64,000 bases of DNA from Elusimicrobiota bacterium (GTDB lineage: Bacteria > Elusimicrobiota > Elusimicrobia > Elusimicrobiales > UBA9959), in the NCBI GenBank assembly GCA_016207645.1, contig JACQPH010000045.1:6610-70609 (forward strand), written 5' to 3'. Of this stretch, positions 4,213 to 43,803 are shown in pieces (positions within the stretch are counted from its first letter, which is position 1; every line of letters begins with the position of its first letter). The translations under genes and the position numbers were made by a program. Under the pieces are notes generated by a model. That model made no database searches, was not told where the DNA came from, and saw only the letters and a list, made by a program, of their open reading frames with translations.

Positions 4213-5307
<1,095 letters not shown>

Positions 5308-5318
5308 GCCGCGTGCCC

Positions 5319-7487
5319 TTAGTGCCGGAAATGCCTGACCCCGGTCAGCACCATGGCTACCCCCAGCTTGTCGGCGGTTTCCACCACTTCATCGTCCCTC
5401 AGGGACCCGCCGGGGTGTATCACGGCGGTAGCCCCCAGCTTCACCCCCTCCTCGAGCGCGTCGGGGAAAGGGAAGAAAGCGTCCGAGGCCATGACCAAAG
5501 TCTCCGGACGGGGATTATCCTTTAAAAAGGCTTCCAGCTTATGCCCGGCCATGAAGACCGAGTCCAGCCGGGACATCTGCCCCGCCCCGATGCCGACGGT
5601 GCGCTTGTTGTCGGAGAGGACTATGGCGTTCGAGCGCACGTACTTGGCCGCCGTCCAGGCGAAGCGCAGCGCCTCCTCCTCTTCCGCGGTAGGCTTCCGC
5701 CTGGTAGGGACCTCCCATTTATCGCCGAGCAGCAGTTTATCGTCGGTACTGACCAGCACTTCGTCGCCGATCGAGCGCAGCACCAGGTTGTCGGCCGGGA
5801 AGCTGTCCCATTTAAGCAGGCGCAGATTGGTCTTCTTCGCGAAGATCGCCAGCGCTTTCTCGTCGTAGTCCGGCGCGCAGACGACTTCCACGAACCTCCT
5901 GGCCAGGAACTCGGCTATGCGCCCGTCCAGCCTGCGGTTCAGGGCGATTATCCCGCCGAAGGCGGAGAGCGGGTCGGTGCTCCACGCCCTTTCGAAGGCC
6001 TCCGCTATGTCCGCGCCGGTGCCGACCCCGCAGGGCGTGACATGTTTGAAGATGACCGCCGCCGGTTTCTCGAACTCCCGCACCGCCTGGTAAGTGCCGT
6101 AGGCGTCGAGGATATTATTATAGGAGAGCTCCTTTCCCTGCAGCTGGGCGAAGGGAAGTTTTTCCTTCCTGGAATAAAGCGCGCAGGCCTGGTGCGGGTT
6201 CTCGCCGTAGCGCAGCTCGCGCACCTTTGTCAGCGGGACCGCGAGGCTGGGCGGGAAGCCGGCGGACGCCGTCTTCGAATGCGCGGCGGCGATAGCCCCG
6301 TCGTAGGCGGCGGTATGGGCGAAGGCCTTGACGGCCAGCTCTTTTTTGAGTTCAAGGGGCAGGCTCCCCGAACCCGCTTTCAGCGCCGCCAGGACCGGGG
6401 CGTAATCGGCCGGCGAGGTCAGCACCGCCACCGACCGGTAGTTCTTGCCCGCGGCGCGCAGCAGAGCCACGCCGCCGATATCTATGTTCTCTATCAGTTC
6501 CTCCGACCACGGAGCGGCTTTTTTGGCCGTCTCGGCGAAGGGATAAAGGTTCACCACCACCATGTCTATGGGCTCAATGCCGAATTTGAAGACCGTCCCG
6601 GCGTGGACGGAATTATCCCGCCGGTAAAGGATCCCGCCGTGCACGGCCGGGTGCAGGGTCTTCACCCTGCCGTCGAGCATCTCGGGAAAGCCGGTAAGGG
6701 TCTCGAGAGCGCGCACCGGCACGCCCGCTTCCTTCAGGAGTTTATAAGTGCCGGAAGTGGAGACCACCTCCACGCCTTCGGCGGCCAGGCCGCGGCAGAA
6801 TTCCACCGCGCCGCTCTTGTCGGAAACCGAGATCAGGGCGCGCCGCACTTTCCCGGTCTCGGGCGCCGGTCCGGAAAGCTCCACCTTGCGGCCTTTGACT
6901 TTAAGGAGGTCCGCGCAGAATAAAGCGGCGGCTTTAGGATAGACGGCCAGCTCGGCGGTATTTACTCTTTTAGCCAGGTCTTCGGGGGTGTCGCCCGGCA
7001 ATACGGGCACGGGCTGCTGGAGTATTATGGGCCCGCAGTCGTAGTTCTCGTCTACGAAATGCACGGTGACCCCGCTTACTTTCGCGCCGGACGCTATGAC
7101 GGCTTCGTGGACTTTGAGGCCGTAGAAGCCTTTCCCGCCGAAGGCCGGCAGCAGCGCCGGGTGGACGTTCATTATCCTGCCGCTGAAGGCGGAGAGGAGC
7201 CTGGGACCGAGTTTGAGCATGAAGCCCGCCAGGCAGACCAGGTCGGCCTTATGCTTCAGGCAGAGGCCGGCGAGATGCTCGTCATAAGCTTCGGGGGTCT
7301 TGAAATCACCGGGAACGGCGGTTTCGGCCGGGATCCCGGCTTTGGCCGCGCGCTCAAGCGCGCCGGCGCCGGGCTTGCTGGAAACGACCAGGGCTATTAT
7401 TCCCTTTATACGCCCATCCCTGGCCGCGTCTATCAAAGCCTGCAGATTAGTGCCGCCGCCGGAAGCGAAAACGACTATATTTTTCAT
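5319..7487 (-). CDS. purN-purH: Fusion of GAR transformylase (PurN) with AICAR transformylase/IMP cyclohydrolase (PurH)
   Basis: Residues ~1-200: FASGGGTNL, NVHPALLPAFGG, HFVDENYDCGPII (PurN). Remainder: ALISVSDKSG MGS-like IMP cyclohydrolase domain and a long AICARFT domain. It is one uninterrupted 722-aa ORF. Confidence 0.85.
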   Translation of the reverse strand: MKNIVVFASGGGTNLQALIDAARDGRIKGIIALVVSSKPGAGALERAAKAGIPAETAVPGDFKTPEAYDEHLAGLCLKHKADLVCLAGFMLKLGPRLLSAFSGRIMNVHPALLPAFGGKGFYGLKVHEAVIASGAKVSGVTVHFVDENYDCGPIILQQPVPVLPGDTPEDLAKRVNTAELAVYPKAAALFCADLLKVKGRKVELSGPAPETGKVRRALISVSDKSGAVEFCRGLAAEGVEVVSTSGTYKLLKEAGVPVRALETLTGFPEMLDGRVKTLHPAVHGGILYRRDNSVHAGTVFKFGIEPIDMVVVNLYPFAETAKKAAPWSEELIENIDIGGVALLRAAGKNYRSVAVLTSPADYAPVLAALKAGSGSLPLELKKELAVKAFAHTAAYDGAIAAAHSKTASAGFPPSLAVPLTKVRELRYGENPHQACALYSRKEKLPFAQLQGKELSYNNILDAYGTYQAVREFEKPAAVIFKHVTPCGVGTGADIAEAFERAWSTDPLSAFGGIIALNRRLDGRIAEFLARRFVEVVCAPDYDEKALAIFAKKTNLRLLKWDSFPADNLVLRSIGDEVLVSTDDKLLLGDKWEVPTRRKPTAEEEEALRFAWTAAKYVRSNAIVLSDNKRTVGIGAGQMSRLDSVFMAGHKLEAFLKDNPRPETLVMASDAFFPFPDALEEGVKLGATAVIHPGGSLRDDEVVETADKLGVAMVLTGVRHFRH

Positions 7488-33364: not shown

Positions 33365-34705
33365 TTATTGCCCATTTGGAAATTTAGAGGGACTGGCGCC
33401 CCCCTCACCCTGCTTTCTTTGATTTAGTCGCGATTTGGCCGATTCCCTCGTTCCTTGGTCGGGGTGACTCTTTACAACCTCCTCTAGGACAGGGACAGCT
33501 TCCGCATTGCCCGATAGAGCGACCAAATCCACTGCAAATAGAGACCCTGTGCGGCGTTTTTCTAGAATATCCACGAAAACCGAAAACCGTGAATTAAACA
33601 ACGAACCCACCTTGCTGTCCGCTGAAGCAGCTCTTCGCGGGGAATGAAGTCCGTGCAACCCCTGCAAAACAAAATACTCTACCCGTTCATTCAGCGGCTT
33701 ATCCTCCAACTTTTTCAGCAATGGCTCCACGGCCCGCAAATCATCCGATTCCCCCAAGCTTGCAGCGGCGGACATTTGCACATTTTCATCAGGATCGTTC
33801 AACATTTCAATAAGCCGCGGAACGCTTGATAACCCTTCGCCATAACGAAACCATAAAACAAGCCTGCGGGCAGCCATTTCCCTAACCCTGGAAGAAGCAT
33901 CCGTTAAAAGACCGGTTATTACCGGTAAAGCGTTATCTCTGCGCCGATCGCCTAGATCAAGGGCGGCGCGCGACCTGATTCTATCGTTTGGATGCTTTGA
34001 GAGCGAAATTAAAATATTTGTAGCCTCCGTGGAAAACTGGTCGGATAAAACCAAGCTGGCGGTTTTGATAACCTCCTCATTTTTACTATTCGCGGCAGCA
34101 ATTGCCAGACTCACGAATTCTTTATCGTGTGTATGTCGTATTACAGAGAGCGCGGTATGCTGCGCCTCCGGGACATCGCTTTTGAGTAATTTAACAACTT
34201 CACCATGATACACCCCATGAATAGCACCGCTGGACAATCCCCATATGTACTGGCGGGCTGTCTGCATTAACAGGGTATTTGTAGATGTGGCCAACCCGAA
34301 CATCGCACGATCACGTTCGAAATCGGTCTTCATGATGGAAACATCAAGAAGCTTCTTCACCATAGTGATGTTCCGCTCTTCGTATTTCGGAGATAGCGGC
34401 AAGACATATGTGCGCCGGCCGTTAAAAATTACGACATATGTCGAATCCGGCAGCAGCGGCGCTGGAGGATGGATATCAGATCCGTTGGCCAATGGCCATT
34501 CAAGCGCTTTTGGGGATACTTGCCCCTTAAGGACAGTCAGAATTTCAACCGGGAACGGAGCGGTTCTCTGTGACGCCGTTTTCCCCACAAAAATAGCATC
34601 ACTTGACTTAACCCACTCGTACAAATTTGGAGGCAGGGATTTTGCCGAGGCACCGGAAATAACGGCAAACACTAAAACCCAAAAACCTCTGTGCCCAAAT
34701 TTCAT
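33365..34705 (-). CDS. Secreted HEAT-repeat (PBS-lyase HEAT-like) protein, low GC
   Basis: Signal peptide MKFGHRGFWVLVFAVISGASA. Repeated ..D..VR..AA..LG.. HEAT-like units (RIRSRAALDLG, SRVREMAARRL, ENVQMSAAASLG). GGAGG 9 nt upstream. Confidence 0.7.
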   Translation of the reverse strand: MKFGHRGFWVLVFAVISGASAKSLPPNLYEWVKSSDAIFVGKTASQRTAPFPVEILTVLKGQVSPKALEWPLANGSDIHPPAPLLPDSTYVVIFNGRRTYVLPLSPKYEERNITMVKKLLDVSIMKTDFERDRAMFGLATSTNTLLMQTARQYIWGLSSGAIHGVYHGEVVKLLKSDVPEAQHTALSVIRHTHDKEFVSLAIAAANSKNEEVIKTASLVLSDQFSTEATNILISLSKHPNDRIRSRAALDLGDRRRDNALPVITGLLTDASSRVREMAARRLVLWFRYGEGLSSVPRLIEMLNDPDENVQMSAAASLGESDDLRAVEPLLKKLEDKPLNERVEYFVLQGLHGLHSPRRAASADSKVGSLFNSRFSVFVDILEKRRTGSLFAVDLVALSGNAEAVPVLEEVVKSHPDQGTRESAKSRLNQRKQGEGGASPSKFPNGQ

Positions 34706-34792
34706 GAGAACACGCCTCCGACTTATCCCTTCTGTTTTTTAAGCTTTGGACGGGGATAATGGAACGAAGTTGGCTTTGTGATTATTTACCCA

Positions 34793-34850
34793 CAGTTCAG
34801 TCCGGGTCGTTATAATAAGTCAAATAGCCAACTACACCCAATTATCTCCC
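34793..34850. repeat. Copy B of ~58 bp imperfect direct repeat
   Basis: CAGTTCAGTCCGGGTCGTTATAATAAGTCAAATAGCCAACTACACCCAATTATCTCCC. Lies between the XDH-L1 stop and the HEAT gene start. Confidence 0.7.
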
Positions 34851-34881
34851 GTTGTTTTTGGCTTACATCACACAGATATGA

Positions 34882-37191
34882 TCAACCCCGCTTCTTCAGC
34901 GCCGCCAGCACCTTGTCGGGGGTGAAGGGGGCGTCGAAGAGCCGGATGCCGCAGGCATTGTAGATGGCGTTGGCCACCGCCGGCAGCGGGCCGTTGATAC
35001 CTATCTCGGAGACCGACTTGGCGCCGAAGGGGCCGGCGGGCTCCCAGGTGGGGATCAGGAAGGTGCGCAGCGGCGGCGTGTCGGCCGCCGAGAAGATCTT
35101 GTAGCGGCGGAAAGAGGCGTTCAGCGGGGTGCCGTTGGTGGAGAATTCCATTTCCTCGGACAGCGTGTGGCTGATGCCGTTCAGCACCGCCCCGTCGTTC
35201 TGGCCCTCCGCCAGCTGCGGGTTGATCGCGGTGCCGCAGTCCACGCAGCTCACGTAGTCCAGGATCTTCACCACCCCGGTCTCCATGTCCACTTCCACCT
35301 CGGCGAAATTCGCCTGGAAGGGCGGCGGGGAGGTATGGGCGAAATGGGAGGCGGAGGCCGTTATCTGGTGCTGGTTATAATAGTACAGGGAAGTATTGGC
35401 CACTTCGGAGAGGGAGCAGGAAGCTCCGTCCTTGGCCACGACCTTCCCCCCTTCCAGCCGCAGCTCCTCTTTTTTCTGGTCCAGGATCTTCGCCCCGACT
35501 TCCAGTATCATCTCGCGCACTTTCTCGGCGGTCTTCTTCACGGCTCCGCCGGAGATGAAGGTGGTGGAGGAGGCGTAGGCGCCCACGTCGAAAGGCGTGA
35601 TATCGGTGTCTGAAGAAGTAACAATTATGTCGTCGGTTTTTATTCCCAGAACCTCGGCCGCTATCTGGGCGAGGATGGTGTCGGAGCCGGTGCCCAGGTC
35701 GGCCGCGCCGACCAGCAGGTTGAAGGAGCCGTCCTCGTTCATCTTCATCGTGGCCGAGGCCATGTCCACTTCGGGGATGCCGGAGCCCTGCATCATGCAG
35801 GCCGCGCCCACGCCGCGGCGGATAGGGCCCGACTGGGCGGCGTACTTCGCGCGCTTCTCGGCCCATTTGATCTCTTCCGTGCCTTTCCGGATGGCCTCGA
35901 ACAGGCCGGTGGAGGTAATGACCTGCTCCACGCCCTCGCGGCCCTCGCCCATGGCCTTGAACACCGGCGAACCCTCTCCAAGTTTGATGTAATTCATCTT
36001 CCTGAACTCTACGGGGTCCATGCCGATCTTGGCGGCCATCATGTCCATCAGGCATTCCCAGGCGAAGAAGCCCTGCGTCGCGCCATAGCCGCGGTAAGCC
36101 CCTGCCACCGGCATATTCGTGTATACGCTGCGGCCGATGAAGCGGATATTGTTCTTCACGCGGTACATCGGGATGGTATGCGAGCCGGAGCACATCATCA
36201 CGGTGAGAGCGTGCGAGCCGTAAGCGCCCGTGTTCAGGGTTATCTCCATCTCGGCGTCGGTGATGGTGCCGTCCTTTTTCACGCCGGCCTTCAGGCGGCA
36301 GGTGGCGGGATGGCGGGTGCGGGAGGAGACGAAGGTTTCTTTCCGGGTATATTCCAGCTTCACCGGGCGCTTGGTCTTGAGCGCGAGCGCGGCGACAATA
36401 TCCTCAAGGACTTCCTGCTTGGAGCCGAAGCCGCCGCCGATGCGCGGCTTCACCACGCGGATCTTCTTCACCGGGATCTTCAGGGCCTGGGCCACTATGC
36501 GGCGCACGTGGAAAGGGACCTGCGTGGAGGTACGCAGCACCAGCCTGCCGGAATTGTCGAAATGCGCTATCGTGACATGCGGCTCGATAGCGCAGTGCTG
36601 GAGGTAGGGGATCTTCCAACTGTGCTCGAAGACATGGTCCGCTTCCTTGAACCACTCTCCGTTCTTCACTTCGAAATCGAACCTGGCCGCGATATTGTGC
36701 TTCGCGTCCGGGATATTCTTTGAATCTTCCTCGTCGTGGATGACCGGGGCGCCGTCCTTCATGGCCTCGAAGGTGTCGAAGACCGCCGGCAGGACCTCGT
36801 AATCCACCTTTATCTTCAAAAGGGCCTCGTGCGCGGCTTCAGGGGTCTCCGCGGCCACGGCGGCCACGCGGTCGCCCACGAAGCGGACCTTATTGTCCAG
36901 CGTATAGGTGTCGTAAGGGGAAGGCTCCGGGTAGCCCTGGCCGGCGGTGGTATGCGGTACGCGGGGCAGGTCCTTGCAGGTGAGCACCGCTTTCACGCCG
37001 GGGACTTTAAGCGCGGCCGAGACGTCTATCTTTTTTATCCTGGCGTGGGCGTGCGGGCTCCAGAGTATCTTCCCGCACAGCAGGCCCTTGAACTCCACGT
37101 CGTCGGTGAAGGCCGGCTCGCCGCAGGCCAGTCCCAGCGCGTCCATTTTGATCACCGGCTTATTTACGACATTCAGATCTTTAGCATCCAT
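34882..37191 (-). CDS. Xanthine dehydrogenase-family molybdopterin-binding large subunit (set 1)
   Basis: ORF 34882..37218 trimmed to ATG 37191 (MDAKDLNVVNKPV), because the track start is a TTG inside the tandem repeat. GGGFGSKQE, conserved Glu in AKSVSEIG. Confidence 0.9.
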   Translation of the reverse strand: MDAKDLNVVNKPVIKMDALGLACGEPAFTDDVEFKGLLCGKILWSPHAHARIKKIDVSAALKVPGVKAVLTCKDLPRVPHTTAGQGYPEPSPYDTYTLDNKVRFVGDRVAAVAAETPEAAHEALLKIKVDYEVLPAVFDTFEAMKDGAPVIHDEEDSKNIPDAKHNIAARFDFEVKNGEWFKEADHVFEHSWKIPYLQHCAIEPHVTIAHFDNSGRLVLRTSTQVPFHVRRIVAQALKIPVKKIRVVKPRIGGGFGSKQEVLEDIVAALALKTKRPVKLEYTRKETFVSSRTRHPATCRLKAGVKKDGTITDAEMEITLNTGAYGSHALTVMMCSGSHTIPMYRVKNNIRFIGRSVYTNMPVAGAYRGYGATQGFFAWECLMDMMAAKIGMDPVEFRKMNYIKLGEGSPVFKAMGEGREGVEQVITSTGLFEAIRKGTEEIKWAEKRAKYAAQSGPIRRGVGAACMMQGSGIPEVDMASATMKMNEDGSFNLLVGAADLGTGSDTILAQIAAEVLGIKTDDIIVTSSDTDITPFDVGAYASSTTFISGGAVKKTAEKVREMILEVGAKILDQKKEELRLEGGKVVAKDGASCSLSEVANTSLYYYNQHQITASASHFAHTSPPPFQANFAEVEVDMETGVVKILDYVSCVDCGTAINPQLAEGQNDGAVLNGISHTLSEEMEFSTNGTPLNASFRRYKIFSAADTPPLRTFLIPTWEPAGPFGAKSVSEIGINGPLPAVANAIYNACGIRLFDAPFTPDKVLAALKKRG

Positions 37192-37202
37192 ATTCAGTCC
37201 CC

Positions 37203-37273
37203 AATCTCCAATCTCCAATCTCCAATCTCCAATCTCTAATCTCTAAATCTCTAACCTCTAATCTCTAACCTCT
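37203..37273. repeat. Heptamer tandem array, ~10 units AATCTCC/AATCTCT/AACCTCT (minus strand: TGGAGAT/TAGAGAT/TAGAGGT)
   Basis: Direct reading: 4x AATCTCC, 2x AATCTCT, AAATCTCT, AACCTCT, AATCTCT, AACCTCT. It fills the gap between the 2Fe-2S subunit stop (37265) and the large-subunit ATG (37191). Confidence 0.95.
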
Positions 37274-37768
37274 ACTCTTCAGCCTTTTAGCCGCGTTCTT
37301 CACGGCCTCTACCTGCTTCACATAGCCGGTGCAGCGGCAGAGGTTGCCGTCGAGGGCTTTGCGGATCTCGGCCTCGGTGGGGTCCGGTATCCTGTCCAGC
37401 AAATACTTGGAGGAAAGTATCATCCCCGGTATGCAGAAGCCGCACTGCACGGCGCCGGCCTCTACGAAAGCCTGCTGCAGCGGGTGCGGGTTATGCACGG
37501 AACCGAGCCCTTCGATAGTGGTGATCTCGCCGCCGTGGGCGGCTACGGCCGGGACCAGGCAGCCCAGCACCGGCTTCCCGTTCAGGAGCACCGCGCAGGA
37601 GCCGCAGTCGCCGGTATCGCAGCCCTTCTTCGCGCCTTTCCAGCCGTGGCGGCGCAGGGCGTCGAGCAGGGACTCCGCGTTCCTGACCGAGAGTTCCTTC
37701 TTTTCGCCGTTCACGGCCGCGGATATCCCGAAAAAACCTTTATCGGCGGCCAGCAGGCTGTTTTTCAT
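37265..37768 (-). CDS. XDH-family [2Fe-2S] small subunit (set 1)
   Basis: CDTGDCGSCAV plant-type cluster motif and QCGFCIPG..CRCTGY second cluster motif. Confidence 0.9.
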   Translation of the reverse strand: MKNSLLAADKGFFGISAAVNGEKKELSVRNAESLLDALRRHGWKGAKKGCDTGDCGSCAVLLNGKPVLGCLVPAVAAHGGEITTIEGLGSVHNPHPLQQAFVEAGAVQCGFCIPGMILSSKYLLDRIPDPTEAEIRKALDGNLCRCTGYVKQVEAVKNAAKRLKSRG

Positions 37769-38580
37769 ATTTTACCTTCCATGAAGCGCTTGAGCAGGTT
37801 AGAGGCGGCCGCGCAGCGGTACTCGCCGGCCCTGGCGGCTTCCAGTTCCGCGGCGAAGGCGGCGGCCGCGGCGGCCCCTTCTCCGGAGAGCATGGCCTTT
37901 TCCGCCTCGGGCGCCCGGAACGGCCTGGGCGAAAGCGCGCCCACGGCCGCGCGCGCCTGGGTCACGGACTTCCCCTTCTTCTCGGCGGAGAAGAAGAGGG
38001 TTATATAGGATTCCCAGCTGGACGCCGTCCTGGCCAGCTTAATGAACTCGCATTTCCAGTTCCTGGTCTTCGCGGGGATAATTGCTTCGGTTATCAGGCT
38101 GTCCAGCCCCGGCCTCAGGCCCAGGCCCGAGGTGTAGAGGTCCTGGAAATCTATAAGTTTTGCGCCTTTTCCGGTCTGCAGCCGCACCTTGGCGTCCAGG
38201 GCCAGCAGGACTACGGGGAAGATATTGAAGGAATGCGGGCGGGCTATGTTCCCGCCTATCGTGGCCATGTTGCGGATGAGCTGGGTAGAGCAGGCCGCCG
38301 CGGCCGCGGCTATGCTCCCTCCGGCCCAGGTACGGCAGAGCCTGGAGCGGTCTATCTCGTCGAAGGTGGCTCCCGCGCCGATGACCAGGTTCCCGCCCTG
38401 GAGCCTGATGTCTTTTATCGGCAGGTTCTTCAGGTCCAGGTAGGTTTCCACGGAATCGGGCAGGGTCTTGGACACCAGCGTGCCGCCGGCGAGAGCCATG
38501 GCTTTATATCTTTTATTCAGGAGCAGGGAGAGCGCTTCTTTCACTTTGGACGGACAGGCGTAGTATTTGATGTTTTTCAC
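37765..38580 (-). CDS. XDH-family FAD-binding medium subunit (set 1)
   Basis: ORF 37765..38655 trimmed to GTG 38580 (GGAGGA upstream, avoids overlap with the previous gene). LAGGTLV, IRNMATIGGNI. Confidence 0.8.
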   Translation of the reverse strand: MKNIKYYACPSKVKEALSLLLNKRYKAMALAGGTLVSKTLPDSVETYLDLKNLPIKDIRLQGGNLVIGAGATFDEIDRSRLCRTWAGGSIAAAAAACSTQLIRNMATIGGNIARPHSFNIFPVVLLALDAKVRLQTGKGAKLIDFQDLYTSGLGLRPGLDSLITEAIIPAKTRNWKCEFIKLARTASSWESYITLFFSAEKKGKSVTQARAAVGALSPRPFRAPEAEKAMLSGEGAAAAAAFAAELEAARAGEYRCAAASNLLKRFMEGKI

Positions 38581-38612
38581 GGTTCCTCCGGATAGATCCC
38601 GCGCGGGCCTCT

Positions 38613-39452
38613 TCAGGCCAGCGACTTTAAAGCGCGTTCGAGCAGGACCCCGCACATGTCCAGGCGGTAGGCCGCTTCGCTGCGGGTGTCGGTGATCGGT
38701 GAAGCTTCGGTCCTGACCAGGGCCGAGGCCTCCGCTATAGTTTCAGCCGAAAGCTTTTTATCGGCCAGGAAGGCGGAAGTGCGGGCCGCGTACAGCGGCA
38801 CCGGGGCCACGGAGCCGAGCGCCACGCGGACTCTCTTTACCGCGCCGCCGGAAAGCTCGGCCGTGACGGCTACCGCGGCTTTGGAGATACCGAAATAAGC
38901 GCGCGGGCCGAGCTTGAGGTAGGCGCCGGCATGGCGGCGCTTCCGTATCTCGAAGCCGAGTATCAGCTCGTCCTTTTTCAGCGCGGTCAGCTTCGGACCA
39001 AGGAAAAAGTCCACGAGGGGCAGGCGGCGCTTTTTCCCCTTCAGGGCGAGCAGGACAGAAGCCCCTTCGGCCACCAGGGAACAGGCGCCGTCGGCGCAGG
39101 GGCTGGCGTTGGCGGCGTTACCGCCCAGCGTGGCCATATTGCGCAGGCTGGGGCTGGCGAAATGCGGTATGGCCGCAACAAGGGCCGGGCACCAGCGCGC
39201 CGCAGCTTTGGAGCTTTCTATCTCGGAAATTTTCACCCCGGAGCCGATGAACAGGGAGCCTGCCGCCTCTTTTATGGAGCCCAGCTCGGGGAGGTCGCCT
39301 ATATCTATCCAGCACTCGGAGTGCTCAACTCCGGCAACTCCGGCGGTGACCAGGTCCGTGCCGCCGGCGAGATAGCGGCGGCGGGCGGGCAGGCCCGGCA
39401 GCATTTTCCAGAGCTCTTTGAGGTTAGAGGGCTTTACTATGATCTCGGGCAT
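38613..39452 (-). CDS. XDH-family FAD-binding medium subunit (set 2)
   Basis: YLAGGTDLV, LRNMATLGGNAANASP. 279 aa. Confidence 0.85.
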   Translation of the reverse strand: MPEIIVKPSNLKELWKMLPGLPARRRYLAGGTDLVTAGVAGVEHSECWIDIGDLPELGSIKEAAGSLFIGSGVKISEIESSKAAARWCPALVAAIPHFASPSLRNMATLGGNAANASPCADGACSLVAEGASVLLALKGKKRRLPLVDFFLGPKLTALKKDELILGFEIRKRRHAGAYLKLGPRAYFGISKAAVAVTAELSGGAVKRVRVALGSVAPVPLYAARTSAFLADKKLSAETIAEASALVRTEASPITDTRSEAAYRLDMCGVLLERALKSLA

Positions 39453-39459
39453 AAAGAAA

Positions 39460-39487
39460 GGGTAGAGGGTTTAGGGTAGAGGGGAGA
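39460..39487. repeat. Second heptamer array GGGTAGA GGGTTTA GGGTAGA GGGGAGA (plus strand), related to the 37.2 kb array but inverted
   Basis: Direct reading of the 37-nt gap between set-2 2Fe-2S and FAD subunits. A further GAGGTTAGAGGG lies at 39420..39431 inside the FAD gene. Confidence 0.8.
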
Positions 39488-39489
39488 GA

Positions 39490-39975
39490 CTACTTTTTTA
39501 TTTTCCGGGCTTTCCCGACCGCGGACAGCACCTTCTCGTAGCCTGTGCAGCGGCAGAGGTTGCCGGTCAGCCCCAGCTTGATCTCTTCGAGCGTGGCCTT
39601 CGGCCTGCGGCGCAGCAGCGCTTCCGAAGCCACTATCAGGCCGGGAGTACAGAAGCCGCACTGCACGGCCCCTTCGGCCATGAAGGTCTTCTGCAGCGGG
39701 TGCAGCCCGCCATCGCGGCCCTTTATCCCTTCTATGGTCACGAGTTCTTTGCCGTGGACCTGCACGGCCATCATCAGGCAGGAATTCACGGCCCTGCCGT
39801 CGAGCAGGACCAGGCAGGCGCCGCATTCGCCCTCGCCGCAGCCTTCCTTGGTGCCTTTCAGTCCGAGGTCCTCGCGGATAAATTCCAGCAAAGAGCGGGA
39901 AGAAGGGAGCTCCCGCTCCATGCTCACGCCGTTCACCCTGCATTTCAGGACGAACGGGCTTGTTGACTGTTTCAT
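39490..39975 (-). CDS. XDH-family [2Fe-2S] small subunit (set 2)
   Basis: CGEGECGACLV and QCGFCTPG..CRCTGY. Confidence 0.9.
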   Translation of the reverse strand: MKQSTSPFVLKCRVNGVSMERELPSSRSLLEFIREDLGLKGTKEGCGEGECGACLVLLDGRAVNSCLMMAVQVHGKELVTIEGIKGRDGGLHPLQKTFMAEGAVQCGFCTPGLIVASEALLRRRPKATLEEIKLGLTGNLCRCTGYEKVLSAVGKARKIKK

Positions 39976-42263
39976 CGGGCGGCGACCTTCTTCAGCTCTT
40001 TCCAGATCTTCTCCGGCAGCAGCGGTACCGAATTTACGCGGGCGCCGCAGGCGTTCTTTATAGCGTTGGCCACGGCCGGCGCCACGCCTATGAGCGGGAC
40101 CTCGCCCATGCCCTTGGCCTTATAGGGTCCCCCGGCGTAGGGTTTTTCTATGAAAGTTATATCATATTCGGGTTTATCGGCGGTAGTAGCGATGACATAG
40201 TCGGTAAAGTTGGGATTTACCATGATCCCGTTCTTGTAGATAAGGTTCTCGTACAGGGCCCAGCTCATGCCCTGGAGTATGCCGCCCTGGGCCTGCCCGA
40301 CGGCCAGACGCGGGTTGACTATTCTGCCCACGTCGTAGGCGGCCCAGATCTTCTTGACCTTCGCCACGCCGGTCTTCAGGTCCACCTCCACTTCCGCGGC
40401 GTCGGCCGAGTAGGAATAGATCACGTAGGCGTCGCCCTGGCCGTCCTCCATCCTGAAAGTGGTGCGGGGCGCGGCGTACCAGCCCTGCTCGCTCATCTTC
40501 AGGCGGCGGAACCAGCATTCGGCCACGACTTTCCTGAAATCCACGGACTTCCCGCCCATGGAGAAAATTCCGCCGGCCGCGACCATCTTTTTCGAGGCGT
40601 CGGCGCCGGCGGCGGAAAGCAGGCTGAAGGCGGTCTTAAAAATGCGCTCCCGTAGCGGCGCGGCGGCTTCGATGATGGCGTTGCCGCTCATCAGCGTGGT
40701 GCGGCTGGCGACGGTAGGGCCTGAATCGGGGACCTTCGAGGAATCGACTTCCTCCACTTTCACGCTTTCGTACGGAGCGTTCAGCGTCTCGGCGGCTATC
40801 TGCGCCAGCACCGTGAGCGCGCCCTGCCCCATCTCGGTATTCCCGACGTTCACTCCCACGGAGGAATCCTTGTAGATATTCACCAGCGCGCCGGCGCGGT
40901 CCAGGTAGCGCCCCTTCGCGCCCAGGCCCACGCCGTAATAAGTCGCCGAGAAACCTATCCCGGTCGCCACGTCGCCGGCCGCCGCCCGGGGCTTCGCCTT
41001 TTTGTCCCAGCCCGAACGCTTCCGCACCGTCTGGACCAGCTCTTTCAGGCCGCAGGAGGAGTTAAGTTTCTGCCCGGTCACCGTCCTGTCGCCGGGCTCG
41101 AGCAGATTTTTCAGCCTGAACTGCACGGGGTCCATCCCGACTTTCTCCGCCAGTTCGTCTATGAGCGACTCCTGGGCGAAGCAGACCTGCGGCTGGCCGA
41201 AACCGCGGAAAGCCCCGCAGGGGACCTTATTGGTGGCGGCGGCGTAGGTCTTTATATCCACGTTGGCTATCTTGTAGGGCCCGGCGGCGTGCACGGTGCC
41301 GCGCCAGAGCACTATAGGCGAAAGGGTGGAATAGGCCCCGCCGTCCAGCACGTAGTTCACGCGGCAGGCCGTTATCCTCCCGCTCTTATCCGCGGCGTAG
41401 GCCACGCGCGCCCAGCCGGGATGGCGCTTGGACATGCTCTGGAAATCCTCTTTGCGTCCGTAAATGAGCTTTACCGGTTTTCCGGTCTTGGCGGCGCAGA
41501 GGGCCGCGTGGGAAGCCACCAGGGCGGGCACGTCCTCCTTGCCGCCGAAACCCCCGCCGGTGACGGTCTGAAGTATCTTCACCTTGTGATACGGGATACC
41601 CAGCGCGGCGGCCACGGCGTCCAGCACGTAGAAGGGGCACTGCGTGGTGCTGTGCACCGTCATGCCGCCGTCGGACTCCGGCAGCGCTATGGCGCCCTGG
41701 GTTTCCAGGTAGGCATGCACCTGGTAATTCGTGCTGAACTCCCCCTCCGCAGTATAGGCGGCTTTTTTTAAGGCGGCGTCCACCGAGCCTTTTTTTATGA
41801 CGAAGCTGGAAATGACGTTATCATCGCCGAAAATTTTGACCGCGTCCTTCTCGAGCGCCTTCAGAGGGTCCTCGACGAAGGGCAGCTCCCTGTACTTTAT
41901 CTCCACCAGGGCGGCGGCTTTCCGCGCGGCGCGGGCCGTGGCGGCCACCACCAGCGCCACCGTCTCGCCGGCGAAGCGGGCCTCTTTCTCGGGCAGGAAG
42001 GGATAATCCTGCATCACCACCGGCCACTTGTTCACGCCCTTTATGTCCCTGTACGTGACCAAAGTCACATAGCCGGGCAAGCGCCGCGCACGGGCATCGG
42101 AAATTGAAAGTATCTTTATCCTGGGGCGCGGCGAGCGCACGGCGGCCGCGTGCAGCAGGCCGGCGAACTCCCTGTCATCCGCGTATTGCGCGGCCCCGAC
42201 GGCCTTTATCAAGGCGTCCTTCCTGGGCAGCGATCTCCCGATATATGATAATTTTTCTTTCAT
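39972..42263 (-). CDS. Xanthine dehydrogenase-family molybdopterin-binding large subunit (set 2)
   Basis: GGGFGGKEDV, conserved Glu in AKGMGEVP. 763 aa. 4-nt overlap with its 2Fe-2S subunit. Confidence 0.9.
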   Translation of the reverse strand: MKEKLSYIGRSLPRKDALIKAVGAAQYADDREFAGLLHAAAVRSPRPRIKILSISDARARRLPGYVTLVTYRDIKGVNKWPVVMQDYPFLPEKEARFAGETVALVVAATARAARKAAALVEIKYRELPFVEDPLKALEKDAVKIFGDDNVISSFVIKKGSVDAALKKAAYTAEGEFSTNYQVHAYLETQGAIALPESDGGMTVHSTTQCPFYVLDAVAAALGIPYHKVKILQTVTGGGFGGKEDVPALVASHAALCAAKTGKPVKLIYGRKEDFQSMSKRHPGWARVAYAADKSGRITACRVNYVLDGGAYSTLSPIVLWRGTVHAAGPYKIANVDIKTYAAATNKVPCGAFRGFGQPQVCFAQESLIDELAEKVGMDPVQFRLKNLLEPGDRTVTGQKLNSSCGLKELVQTVRKRSGWDKKAKPRAAAGDVATGIGFSATYYGVGLGAKGRYLDRAGALVNIYKDSSVGVNVGNTEMGQGALTVLAQIAAETLNAPYESVKVEEVDSSKVPDSGPTVASRTTLMSGNAIIEAAAPLRERIFKTAFSLLSAAGADASKKMVAAGGIFSMGGKSVDFRKVVAECWFRRLKMSEQGWYAAPRTTFRMEDGQGDAYVIYSYSADAAEVEVDLKTGVAKVKKIWAAYDVGRIVNPRLAVGQAQGGILQGMSWALYENLIYKNGIMVNPNFTDYVIATTADKPEYDITFIEKPYAGGPYKAKGMGEVPLIGVAPAVANAIKNACGARVNSVPLLPEKIWKELKKVAAR

Positions 42264-42282
42264 AAAGCCTGATCTTACTATT

Positions 42283-43803
42283 TCAGCCGACCTTGTATAT
42301 TACCACGGTTTCCGACTTTCCCTTCAGCGCGGCCTTGCCGAGCGGCGCGAAGGTCACGGCGGAACCCAGGGAGGCTTTCCCCCTGGAGTACGCGGCCTCG
42401 CTTACCAGGATATCGGTGTTGAACTCCCTGGTCTTGGACTCCAGGCGCGAGGCTATATTCACGGTATCGCCGATAAAGGTGTATTCCAGGCGCGCGGAAG
42501 TCCCGATATTCCCGCCGACCAGCTTCCCGGAGTGAATGCCGATGCCGAACTCCACCGTCCCCGGTGCTTTGCCGGAGGCGTTATACTCCGCCAGGGCCTT
42601 GCGCATCGCCATGGCCGCGCGCACGGCGTCGGCGGCGTAATCCTCGGAACCGAGCAGCGGCGTGTAGACGGCCATCACCGCGTCGCCGATGAATTTATTG
42701 ATAACGCCTTTGTTCGCGGTGATCGGCGGGGTGATATAGTGGAAATAATCGTTCAGGAAGCCGACCAGCATGGACGCGCTCATCTTTTCGCTCAGCGGGG
42801 TGAAGTTGCGGATATCGCAGAACATCACCGCCGCCTCCATGTCCTCGCCGCCCAGGTTCACCTTCTTGTTCTTGATCAGCTCCCGCGCTATCTCGATGGA
42901 CAGGTACTTGCCGAAGGTGTCCTGCAGTTCCTCGCGCTCTTTCAGCCCGTCCACCATCTCGTTGAAACCGGCCTTCAGGTTGGCTATCTCGTCGGTAAAA
43001 TAGATGCGGGTCTTTACGAAGTCGCCGCCGGCCACGCGCTTCATCTTGGCTATCAGCCCGTCCAGCGGCACCTGGACGCCGCTGTAGATGGTGGAAAGGC
43101 CGGTGAGCAGCAGCACGCCGGAGAGGAAGAGCAGCATCCCCAGGTCCTCCGCGAAAAAGTCCCAGGGCACCCTGTTCAGGAAGAGAATATAGATGAGGAT
43201 GAAGGGGATCACCGCGAAACCTGTTATCAGCGAAGAGACCTTCACGTAGAGTGGAATGGAGAAACCCGATCTCAGCCGGGAGAGTTCCTCCGGGGCGTAA
43301 AGAGCCTCTATCAGCTTCTTCTGCTTTGAAAGGTGGGCGTCTATATGCGCCACCAGCAGCGCGGCCTGAGCGACGAAGGCGACGCCGGCGGCGGCGTATT
43401 GCTGCCAGGATAGCCCGACGGCAAAACCCGGGACGGCCAGAGCGGTCGCCTGGGCGATCACCAGCATGAGGAAAGCGTCGCGGTAAATATTTCCCAGCCG
43501 GACCCGTATCTTCGCTTTAAGTATCTCGTCCGGCTTCCTCACGTAGAGGTAGGCCGGCCGGCCCCAGAGATAGGTGAGCATGATCATCACCAGGAAAGGG
43601 ATCCCGATGTTCACCCCGGTATGCCGGGTACCGAGGCTCATATTGACCAGCGCCCCGGCGGCCCTGGGTTCGCCGGAAAAAGCGACCATCGCTGTCCTGA
43701 AGAAGGCTGAATTGACGAAAGAGAGGAACAGCGGTATCGTCAGGAGATTGAAGAACTCCGTAAGCTGGCCCTTGCGCTCTTGCTGTTTTGGATCGCCGAA
43801 CAT
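42283..43803 (-). CDS. Membrane class III adenylate/guanylate cyclase with HAMP linker (class IIIb-like Lys/Thr specificity pair)
   Basis: Multi-TM N-terminus, HAMP-like segment (AKMKRVAGGDF..FNEMVDGL). Cyclase core FCDIRNFT, NKFIGDAVMAVY, EYTFIGDTVNIASRLES. Confidence 0.85.
   Translation of the reverse strand: MFGDPKQQERKGQLTEFFNLLTIPLFLSFVNSAFFRTAMVAFSGEPRAAGALVNMSLGTRHTGVNIGIPFLVMIMLTYLWGRPAYLYVRKPDEILKAKIRVRLGNIYRDAFLMLVIAQATALAVPGFAVGLSWQQYAAAGVAFVAQAALLVAHIDAHLSKQKKLIEALYAPEELSRLRSGFSIPLYVKVSSLITGFAVIPFILIYILFLNRVPWDFFAEDLGMLLFLSGVLLLTGLSTIYSGVQVPLDGLIAKMKRVAGGDFVKTRIYFTDEIANLKAGFNEMVDGLKEREELQDTFGKYLSIEIARELIKNKKVNLGGEDMEAAVMFCDIRNFTPLSEKMSASMLVGFLNDYFHYITPPITANKGVINKFIGDAVMAVYTPLLGSEDYAADAVRAAMAMRKALAEYNASGKAPGTVEFGIGIHSGKLVGGNIGTSARLEYTFIGDTVNIASRLESKTREFNTDILVSEAAYSRGKASLGSAVTFAPLGKAALKGKSETVVIYKVG

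Follow-up and report, generated by a model that had tools for sequence, protein, structure and literature searches.

A heptanucleotide tandem array between two molybdoenzyme subunit genes of an Elusimicrobiota bacterium

Heptameric simple sequence repeats (SSRs) are over-represented in many bacterial genomes, with GGGAATC in Xanthomonas and GGGGA(C/T)T in Nostoc PCC 7120 as examples that occur in runs of 2 to 26 units (PMC4692102). In this study we analyzed a heptamer array in a 64-kb stretch (the window) of contig JACQPH010000045.1 from an uncultured Elusimicrobiota bacterium, where it lies between the gene for a 2Fe-2S small subunit and the gene for a molybdopterin-binding (Mo) large subunit. 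We regard the array, with a probability of roughly 0.7, as a heptanucleotide SSR generated by slippage in a lineage prone to period-7 arrays and not as a conserved translation device. All numbers below are window positions, and arrays in the window are read on the minus strand, which is the mRNA strand.

The heptamers of Xanthomonas and Nostoc are intergenic, prefer the gaps between co-directional open reading frames (ORFs), are transcribed and vary in length and sequence between close relatives (PMC4692102). The G-rich strand either follows a stop codon by no more than 50 bp, as the sense strand, or precedes an ORF, as the antisense strand, and in Nostoc one array, that between pecE and pecF, has an intra-operon position (PMC4692102). 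No regulatory role has been identified for them, and one proposal ties the preference for 7 nt to polymerase slippage (PMC4692102). The preliminary description of the locus, which was made from the sequence alone, knew of no described function for such an array; heptamer arrays in intergenic and even intra-operon positions (pecE-pecF) have been published (PMC4692102, PMC4679880), and it is their function that those studies leave unresolved. The array reported here agrees with the Xanthomonas and Nostoc repeats in several respects. On the sense strand it begins 7 nt ahead of the 2Fe-2S stop codon, both flanking genes being on the minus strand, and together with a second, inverted array in the same gene row it occupies both of the preferred placements; inverted pairs and variation at the locus are further points of likeness. 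Only the terminal GGGGACT fits the published consensus (GGGNATC or GGGGA(C/T)T), from which GGAGATT and AGAGATT/AGAGGTT differ at one or two positions. Unlike the published repeats, most of the units in the window carry GG or single G's, so that no G-quadruplex is expected.

Other heptamer systems lie closer to start codons. The TAACTGA repeats of marine Beggiatoaceae, some Cyanobacteria and Bacteroidetes stand directly upstream of starts, and a translational role has been proposed for them without test (MacGregor 2015, PMC4679880). Like the array in the window, they are intergenic direct repeats without predicted RNA structure, and both have stops in all forward frames, so that a gene end is overlapped by a few codons at most. 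The placement is also shared, since the window array is a forward array that ends 5 nt before an ATG and has TAG in three frames; its units are TAGAGRT and TGGAGAT. The TAACTGA repeats lack the complementarity to the anti-Shine-Dalgarno (anti-SD) sequence that makes the window units SD-like, and they occur in 2 to 6 copies, with hundreds of arrays per genome. An effect on expression has been suggested for heptamer repeats near Nostoc recF and recO (bioRxiv 10.1101/2022.06.06.494920). Among the heptamer SSRs considered here, a mechanism has been demonstrated only for (ATCTTTC)n in the 5' untranslated region (UTR) of Haemophilus influenzae hmw1A/hmw2A, where a long hairpin with a G-rich arm is cut by RNase III and copy number tunes expression (PMC12721329). 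The window array is likewise a transcribed heptamer SSR upstream of a coding region, but it precedes a metabolic-enzyme gene instead of an adhesin gene of a host-adapted pathogen, and no local complementary arm that could form a hairpin of the hmw type was found at it. The units of the cyanobacterial STRR (short tandemly repeated repetitive) families are different (e.g., CCCCAGT), reach very high copy number and belong to another phylum. These families, as in Calothrix PCC 7601 (cited in PMC4692102), resemble the present case as dispersed intergenic tandem heptanucleotides with genome-specific sets of units. None of the papers searched reports heptamer repeats in Elusimicrobia. Ribosome standby sites and upstream SD-like enhancers offer a functional analogy, as they too consist of purine-rich RNA that is unstructured, precedes a start codon and is complementary to the anti-SD. 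To our knowledge, no described standby site is a tandem array of heptamers, and conservation among orthologues, which is their usual hallmark, is absent for the window array.

Structure of the array and the same gap in relatives

The array is 78 nt long and fills the intercistronic gap, which measures 73 nt from stop to ATG, and it extends back over the stop and the final three codons of the 2Fe-2S gene. From 37274 down to 37197 it is composed of six TAGAGRT units, four TGGAGAT units and one TGGGGAC unit, arranged as follows.

37197..37274, minus: whole heptamer array, eleven units (direct sequence, Tandem Repeats Finder (TRF), two-unit pattern)
37232..37274, minus: distal sub-array, six TAGAGRT units and an extra T; two of the units carry GAGGU
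37274-37268, minus: U1, TAGAGGT
37267-37261, minus: U2, TAGAGAT, whose TAG (37267-37265) is the stop codon of the 2Fe-2S gene
between U2 and the extra T, minus: U3, TAGAGGT, and U4, TAGAGAT
37246, minus: single extra T
37245-37232, minus: U5 and U6, both TAGAGAT
37204..37231, minus: proximal perfect sub-array (TGGAGAT)x4, U7-U10 (37231-37204); four GGAG cores, 14-35 nt from the ATG
37197..37203, minus: terminal degenerate unit U11 (37203-37197), TGGGGAC; the one SD-like site with a working spacing (6-7 nt) to the ATG

After U11, the sequence TGAAT leads directly to the ATG at 37191-37189. TAG is present in all three frames across the distal TAGAGRT units. Read-through across the array, or a fusion of the two subunits, was considered and set aside; the open frame past the small-subunit TAG spans 26 codons and is out of frame with the large subunit. 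The 7-nt repeat string, the 73-nt gap and the start of the array in the last codons of the upstream gene had been described correctly and match the minus strand exactly, and the gene identities assigned at that time, 2Fe-2S and Mo subunit, agree with the Pfam domains. The array that the preliminary description placed at 37203-37273 with ten units is present, but the units number eleven, the last being degenerate, and that span is a few bases short at the low-coordinate end.

In the TRF analysis the array was the top tandem repeat of the window, with period 7, 10.7 copies, 88% matches and a score of 94, and no array of comparable score occurred in 431 kb of block-shuffled control sequence. The two-unit pattern TRRAGATTRRAGAT (at most one mismatch) matched eight times, always within the array, compared with 0.07 matches expected by shuffling. 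By TRF and by pattern count, these head-to-tail 7-nt copies are far beyond chance, as in a bacterial heptanucleotide SSR. The units form homogeneous blocks, (TAGAGGT TAGAGAT)x2, (TAGAGAT)x2 and the perfect (TGGAGAT)x4, in which adjacent units are more alike than remote ones. An assembly artefact is unlikely because the units are heterogeneous, the 78 nt are shorter than a typical read, and similar arrays are found in independent assemblies.

Scanning with the large subunit, at one genome per species, gave 31 loci, 25 of which are from the Elusimicrobia clade (23 so named in their titles). The clade loci have 77-95% protein identity, and 23 of the 25 retain the gap between the small- and large-subunit genes (S->L gap). 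In 21 of these 23 orthologous loci the gap is 10-43 nt long and contains a single conserved GGAGA SD located 5-9 nt before the ATG, and large arrays fill this gap in two cases alone, the window (73 nt) and L009 (216 nt, with different units). Two of the 21 short gaps have no more than proto-repeats of two to four units at the 3' end of the gene. Across the 23 leaders, it is the single GGAGA SD that is conserved, and a multi-SD array is not. The closest relative, L004 (95% identity of the large subunit), has ..CTGGAGAAAATC-ATG at the position of the array, the entire gap being TAA-ATTTCGCCGACTGGAGAAAATC-ATG. Its SD heptamer is TGGAGAA, which the TGGAGAT unit of the window resembles, and U11 (TGGGGAC) aligns with the conserved GGAGA SD of the orthologues. 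The L009 gap (5780-5990) is composed of an AAGATTR heptamer array (ATTGAAG x11.6), an octamer array of AATCCGAC x10.8 and a short inverted AATCTTR stretch. In three loci, small proto-repeats of period 7 or 8 with two to four units arise from the same C-terminal Lys/Arg codons.

L002: AAAGGCT x3.9
L022: AAGGCTG x2 and more
L016: GTGATAAG x3

Both unit sequence and copy number therefore differ between related genomes at this locus, as is the case for SSRs. Two copies of the motif GATTGGGGA(C/A) are present in the L009 gap, and an identical GATTGGGGAC closes the window array. Close kinship or local recombination was considered as the source of the arrays in the window and L009 and was rejected; the flanking DNA of the two is 82-84% identical, which is the level found with other relatives.

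Period-7 arrays in the gene row and in other genomes

The main array belongs to a row of minus-strand genes (34882-42263) in which two operons of the xanthine-dehydrogenase/CO-dehydrogenase (XDH/CODH) family follow each other head to tail in mirrored order, so that the two FAD-subunit genes are adjacent. In the list below, L, S and M stand for the large, small and FAD subunits.

39972-42263, 39490-39975 and 38613-39452, minus: operon 1, order L-S-M (Pfam)
37765-38655, 37265-37768 and 34882-37191, minus: operon 2, order M-S-L (Pfam), with the main array in its S->L gap
37265..37768, minus: 2Fe-2S small-subunit gene of an XDH/CODH-family enzyme, 167 aa (Pfam Fer2_2/Fer2)
34882..37191, minus: molybdopterin-binding large-subunit gene, 769 aa from the ATG at 37191 (Pfam Ald_Xan_dh_C, MoCoBD_1, MoCoBD_2)
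39453..39489, minus: second heptamer array, CCCTCTA CCCTAAA CCCTCTA CCCTTTC on the mRNA (TRF 39459-39488, period 7, 4.3 copies)

The second array fills the 37 nt of operon 1 that separate the stop of the small-subunit gene (39490) from the ATG of the FAD-subunit gene (39452), 2.2 kb upstream of the main array. Read on the opposite strand, its unit is TAGAGGG, which is identical to U1 and U3 of the main array at six of seven positions. On the mRNA the second array is pyrimidine-rich, and the ATG at 39452 has no purine-rich SD left in front of it. One unit family is thus present in both orientations within one gene row, which argues against SD content as the reason for the arrays. In most relatives the S->M gap of operon 1 is only 0-10 nt long, and L009 again carries a pyrimidine-rich heptamer array there (AATCTTA and similar). 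The second array is C-rich and G-free on the mRNA and resembles a Rho-binding (rut) site. Other repeats were observed elsewhere in the rows of relatives. In L018, an AGTAAAG x6 array (806-848) begins within the final codons of the first FAD-subunit gene, and a AGATATTA x8 array (4392-4455) lies about 90 nt upstream of the second. In L002 (798-829), a (GGGAATC)n array with the Xanthomonas-type unit is in frame within the segment that encodes a surface loop of the other large subunit; the loop reads KKAKPRAAAGDVATG in the window and KKIGDRESGIGNQGDIVTG in L002, a case of a heptamer SSR producing variation in a protein loop.

Period 7 is the commonest repeat period in the Elusimicrobia DNA covered here. 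In 358 kb of Elusimicrobia DNA, all from the same region and analyzed together with shuffle controls, six arrays of period 7 were found compared with two of period 8, and the genome studied here has two arrays in 64 kb. The same preference holds for the additional arrays in loci that were selected for TRRAGAT: period 7 accounts for 84 of about 164 such arrays in the metagenome loci, with period 8 next at 28, and for 488 in the viral loci, where periods 6 and 8 reach 129 and 112. The exact scan of metagenome contigs for (TRRAGAT)x3 found at least 120 contigs with a GC content of 0.25-0.67. Arrays were placed by a simple greedy ORF model, and among the metagenome matches listed, to which all of the following counts refer, 107 of 131 TRRAGAT arrays are intergenic. 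For the gene on the 5' side, the purine-rich strand is sense in 58 cases and antisense in 33, and the arrays often abut the stop of this gene; in 16 cases, as in the window, they overlap the gene end and contain its stop, an association that may be inflated because the pattern itself holds stop triplets. Relative to the downstream gene on the 3' side the orientation is unbiased (41 on the same strand, 39 on the opposite one), and both orientations are common between co-directional genes (27 and 19). For 14 array matches an inverted partner lies within 150 nt.

It is the period rather than the unit that is preferred. TRRAGAT gave 91 stretches in viral contigs, compared with 73, at least 120 and at least 120 for three permuted heptamers of the same composition, only two of which are independent controls, as the permuted pattern TAGARRT overlaps TRRAGAT. 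The idea of TRRAGAT/RRRGATT as a special element shared across phyla was therefore rejected, permuted heptamers being about as common or commoner in the viral contigs and many unrelated period-7 units being present. Most of the additional arrays on array-bearing contigs have units unrelated to the seed.

The metagenome loci also presented some features of their own. Contigs L066, L090, L041 and L077 bear up to eight more period-7 arrays each, with unrelated units such as CGGGTTG x16.6 and CATCCAG x15.3, which indicates genomes with a general habit of forming heptamer arrays. On L033, L042, L058, L076, L086, L050 and L070, a conserved small hairpin (..AAYCCGGACAAGCCGGAAT) is directly followed by (TGAAGAT)3-4 and, on several of these contigs, by the conserved stretch TTGYGGTATCGCTTCGCTCTGTC; this recurrent composite, for which Rfam gave no match, may be a small mobile or structured element bearing a heptamer array. 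Close inverted pairs of the form (TRRAGAT)n, short spacer, (ATCTYYA)n occur on L043, L048, L053, L113, L115, L127, L130 and others. Judged by their sequence, such pairs would form long hairpins, and some are followed by T-runs in a terminator-like manner.

Origin of the array and rival explanations

The structure of the array, the hypervariability of the locus between genomes, the preference for period 7 and the occurrence of both orientations are established here, and from them we infer slippage as the mechanism, an origin from the SD and functional neutrality. Slipped-strand mispairing at replication would create the array and keep it in flux, and it would grow within a short, dispensable intercistronic spacer up to the limits set by selection on both sides. 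Upstream, growth would have been limited by the 2Fe-2S gene, with its purine-rich Lys/Arg tail codons and its stop, which one of the units now supplies; downstream, the limit would be the Mo subunit gene with its SD and start codon. In the simplest account, (TGGAGAT)x4 would be a recent tandem amplification of the heptamer that held the ancestral SD (TGGAGAA in L004), and the last, mutated copy, TGGGGAC, located 6-7 nt from the ATG, would have taken over its role. The array thus probably grew in part by amplification of an SD-containing heptamer, and its terminal GGGGA unit is probably the working SD, because (TGGAGAT)x4 resembles the TGGAGAA of L004 and TGGGGAC aligns at the correct spacing. 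The distal TAGAGRT block, which closes three frames behind the small-subunit gene, would be the older part because its units are mixed and interrupted by a 1-nt insertion. The extra SD-like cores and the unstructured purine-rich RNA would then be by-products that may mildly alter translation of the large subunit. Expansion by slippage had already been suggested in the preliminary description, and the homogeneous blocks, the hypervariability of the locus among relatives and the dominance of period 7 bear it out.

Several observations weigh against this interpretation. Simple local slippage explains neither the recurrence of arrays in the window and L009 nor the sharing of unit families within genomes. 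The former have arrays in the same two gaps and in the same orientations although they are not sister genomes, which exceeds a purely random expectation and hints at hot spots, ancestry or selection. As for the latter, additional arrays share the unit family of their seed in 63 of 218 cases, compared with 8 of 76 for other seed classes (a factor of two to five). With seven SD-like sites immediately preceding a start codon, an effect on translation is plausible, and we count the step to functional neutrality itself among the weak points. Finally, the genome is represented by a single contig: the identical small subunit was found by homology search on one 73.5-kb contig of a metagenome-assembled genome (MAG) only, the next relative being 87% identical, and exact-protein look-ups with the small subunit and with two versions of the large subunit gave no record of another assembly.

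The most obvious rival is translational. Under this hypothesis, the array would be a multi-SD standby or loading platform whose cores, repeated every 7 nt, bind 30S subunits and deliver them to the start codon, thus raising large-subunit translation. With a generic anti-SD sequence as the partner, the 16S 3' end of the organism lying outside the window, seven SD-like sites are predicted to pair at -5.5 to -7.0 kcal/mol (two GAGGU at -7.0, four GGAGA at -6.4 and one GGGGA at -5.5 kcal/mol), which agrees with the SD-like GGAG cores noticed initially. The array ends 5 nt before the ATG and its RNA is nearly unstructured (-5.7 kcal/mol over 83 nt), and start-proximal heptamers have been proposed to act in translation in the case of TAACTGA (PMC4679880) and of Nostoc recF/recO (bioRxiv 10.1101/2022.06.06.494920). 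Stable RNA structure of the array was considered separately and rejected, as there is just weak G-U pairing; the fold of the 181-nt context has z = -2.35, mainly from flanking coding sequence. However, only the terminal GGGGA (-5.5 kcal/mol with the generic anti-SD) has a working spacing, the four GGAG cores, at 14-35 nt, falling beyond normal SD spacing. The array is missing in 21 of the 23 orthologous gaps, where one SD is kept, and its sister in this gene row, which is pyrimidine-rich on the mRNA, has cost the following gene its SD. The metagenome matches listed show no bias toward the downstream gene (41 vs 39), the bias being instead toward the stop of the upstream gene (58 vs 33). We therefore consider a platform of this kind unlikely to be the reason for the array; the suggestion of a ribosome-loading or standby function in the preliminary description is not supported, given the single SD of 21 of 23 orthologues, the inverted array nearby and the lack of a downstream-gene bias. 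A related proposal is that of a contingency or rheostat locus, in which gain and loss of 7-nt units would alter the spacing and the number of SD-like sites and reversibly tune the ratio of large to small subunit. It is consistent with the perfect four-unit tract, with the hypervariability of the locus between genomes and with the proven expression rheostat formed by the heptamer SSR (ATCTTTC)n of H. influenzae hmw1A (PMC12721329). It is nevertheless quite unlikely in our estimation. Phase-variable genes typically encode surface, restriction-modification or host-interaction factors, and the genes flanking this array encode FAD, 2Fe-2S and molybdopterin subunits of a cytoplasmic redox enzyme. 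Moreover, the organism is a free-living environmental bacterium, judged by the sources of related MAGs, the perfect units number just four, and Rehm et al. saw no link of such repeats with phase variation (PMC4692102). A standby or rheostat effect on large-subunit translation is possible as a side effect, to which the conservation and orientation statistics lend no support.

The remaining rivals invoke nucleic acid structure. The two arrays of the gene row could form a duplex on one polycistronic mRNA, which would then be processed (e.g., by RNase III) or loop out the cistrons between them. The predicted duplex of -32 to -33 kcal/mol makes array 2 the best partner of array 1 along the 7.4-kb transcript (mean -16, sd 5.9), the arrangement of a purine and a pyrimidine array is repeated in the same two gaps of L009, 14 of the metagenome array matches listed have an inverted partner within 150 nt, and the heptamer hairpin in the hmw 5'-UTR is a precedent (PMC12721329). 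However, shuffled versions of array 2 pair at -27.7 +/- 4.0 kcal/mol (best -42.3 kcal/mol) and one coding segment ties at -32.6 kcal/mol, so that the complementarity is compositional, and specific long-range pairing of the two arrays was rejected because the duplex is no better than composition-matched shuffles. The local hairpin of the L009 gap is also at the level of shuffles (z = 0.01), and co-transcription of the two operons is an assumption. We consider long-range pairing very improbable. A broader version, in which the two complementary arrays would be a functional pair that either pairs across about 2 kb of mRNA or binds a repeat-specific protein, with slippage in copy number tuning the processing and subunit stoichiometry of the two tandem molybdoenzymes, is very improbable as well; if true, a free-living bacterium would have a heptamer-based rheostat of expression within its operons. 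It could also be argued that the array is a G-quadruplex-forming repeat of the GGGNATC/GGGGAYT class, which would act on DNA or RNA through a four-stranded structure. The unit GGAGATT is one position away from the Nostoc GGGGATT, the terminal unit with the next T reads GGGGACT, the Nostoc consensus (PMC4692102), and relative L002 has a (GGGAATC)n array. This idea is extremely improbable, considering that the G-runs are just 2 nt long save for one GGGG, in place of the at least four G-tracts of at least three G of this repeat class (Rehm et al. 2015), that 6 of 11 units have isolated G's only, and that no G-quadruplex was predicted, the ViennaRNA fold being identical with and without the G-quadruplex option.

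Flanking genes and the meaning of the array

The small subunit ends in ..KRLKSRG and has a normal length, as its homologues have 164-171 aa and variable K/R-rich tails, and a FAD_binding_5 subunit gene (Pfam) lies further upstream of the 2Fe-2S gene. The start of the large subunit, MDAK.., is kept in orthologues. The ORF list places this start at an in-frame TTG (37218) within the array, which adds nine codons, and this TTG is not conserved. Every UUG of the TGGAGAT block has a GGAG 8 nt upstream, and spurious or minor initiation at array UUGs, including those out of frame, is conceivable. The listed GTG start of the second FAD-subunit gene (38655), which makes it overlap the first by 43 nt, is probably set too far upstream because orthologue alignments start at residue 16-26. 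In many relatives about 3.4 kb of other genes separate the two FAD-subunit genes. No promoter or terminator was found in the gap, and the Rfam search gave no relevant match in 34000-43000 or in 15 array-bearing metagenome loci.

The array is real and of the already described bacterial heptamer microsatellite kind, which is now found in a new phylum, the Elusimicrobia. Such arrays are hot spots of assembly and annotation error, for example of the spurious TTG start at 37218, and could act as strain markers. This locus offers a clean natural comparison, in which one and the same spacer consists of 10-43 nt with one SD in most relatives and of 11 units in one genome and about 22 units in another. 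The comparison illustrates how an SD heptamer may be amplified into an array, and it supports slippage with period 7 as a mutational property at the level of the genome rather than dedicated regulatory elements.

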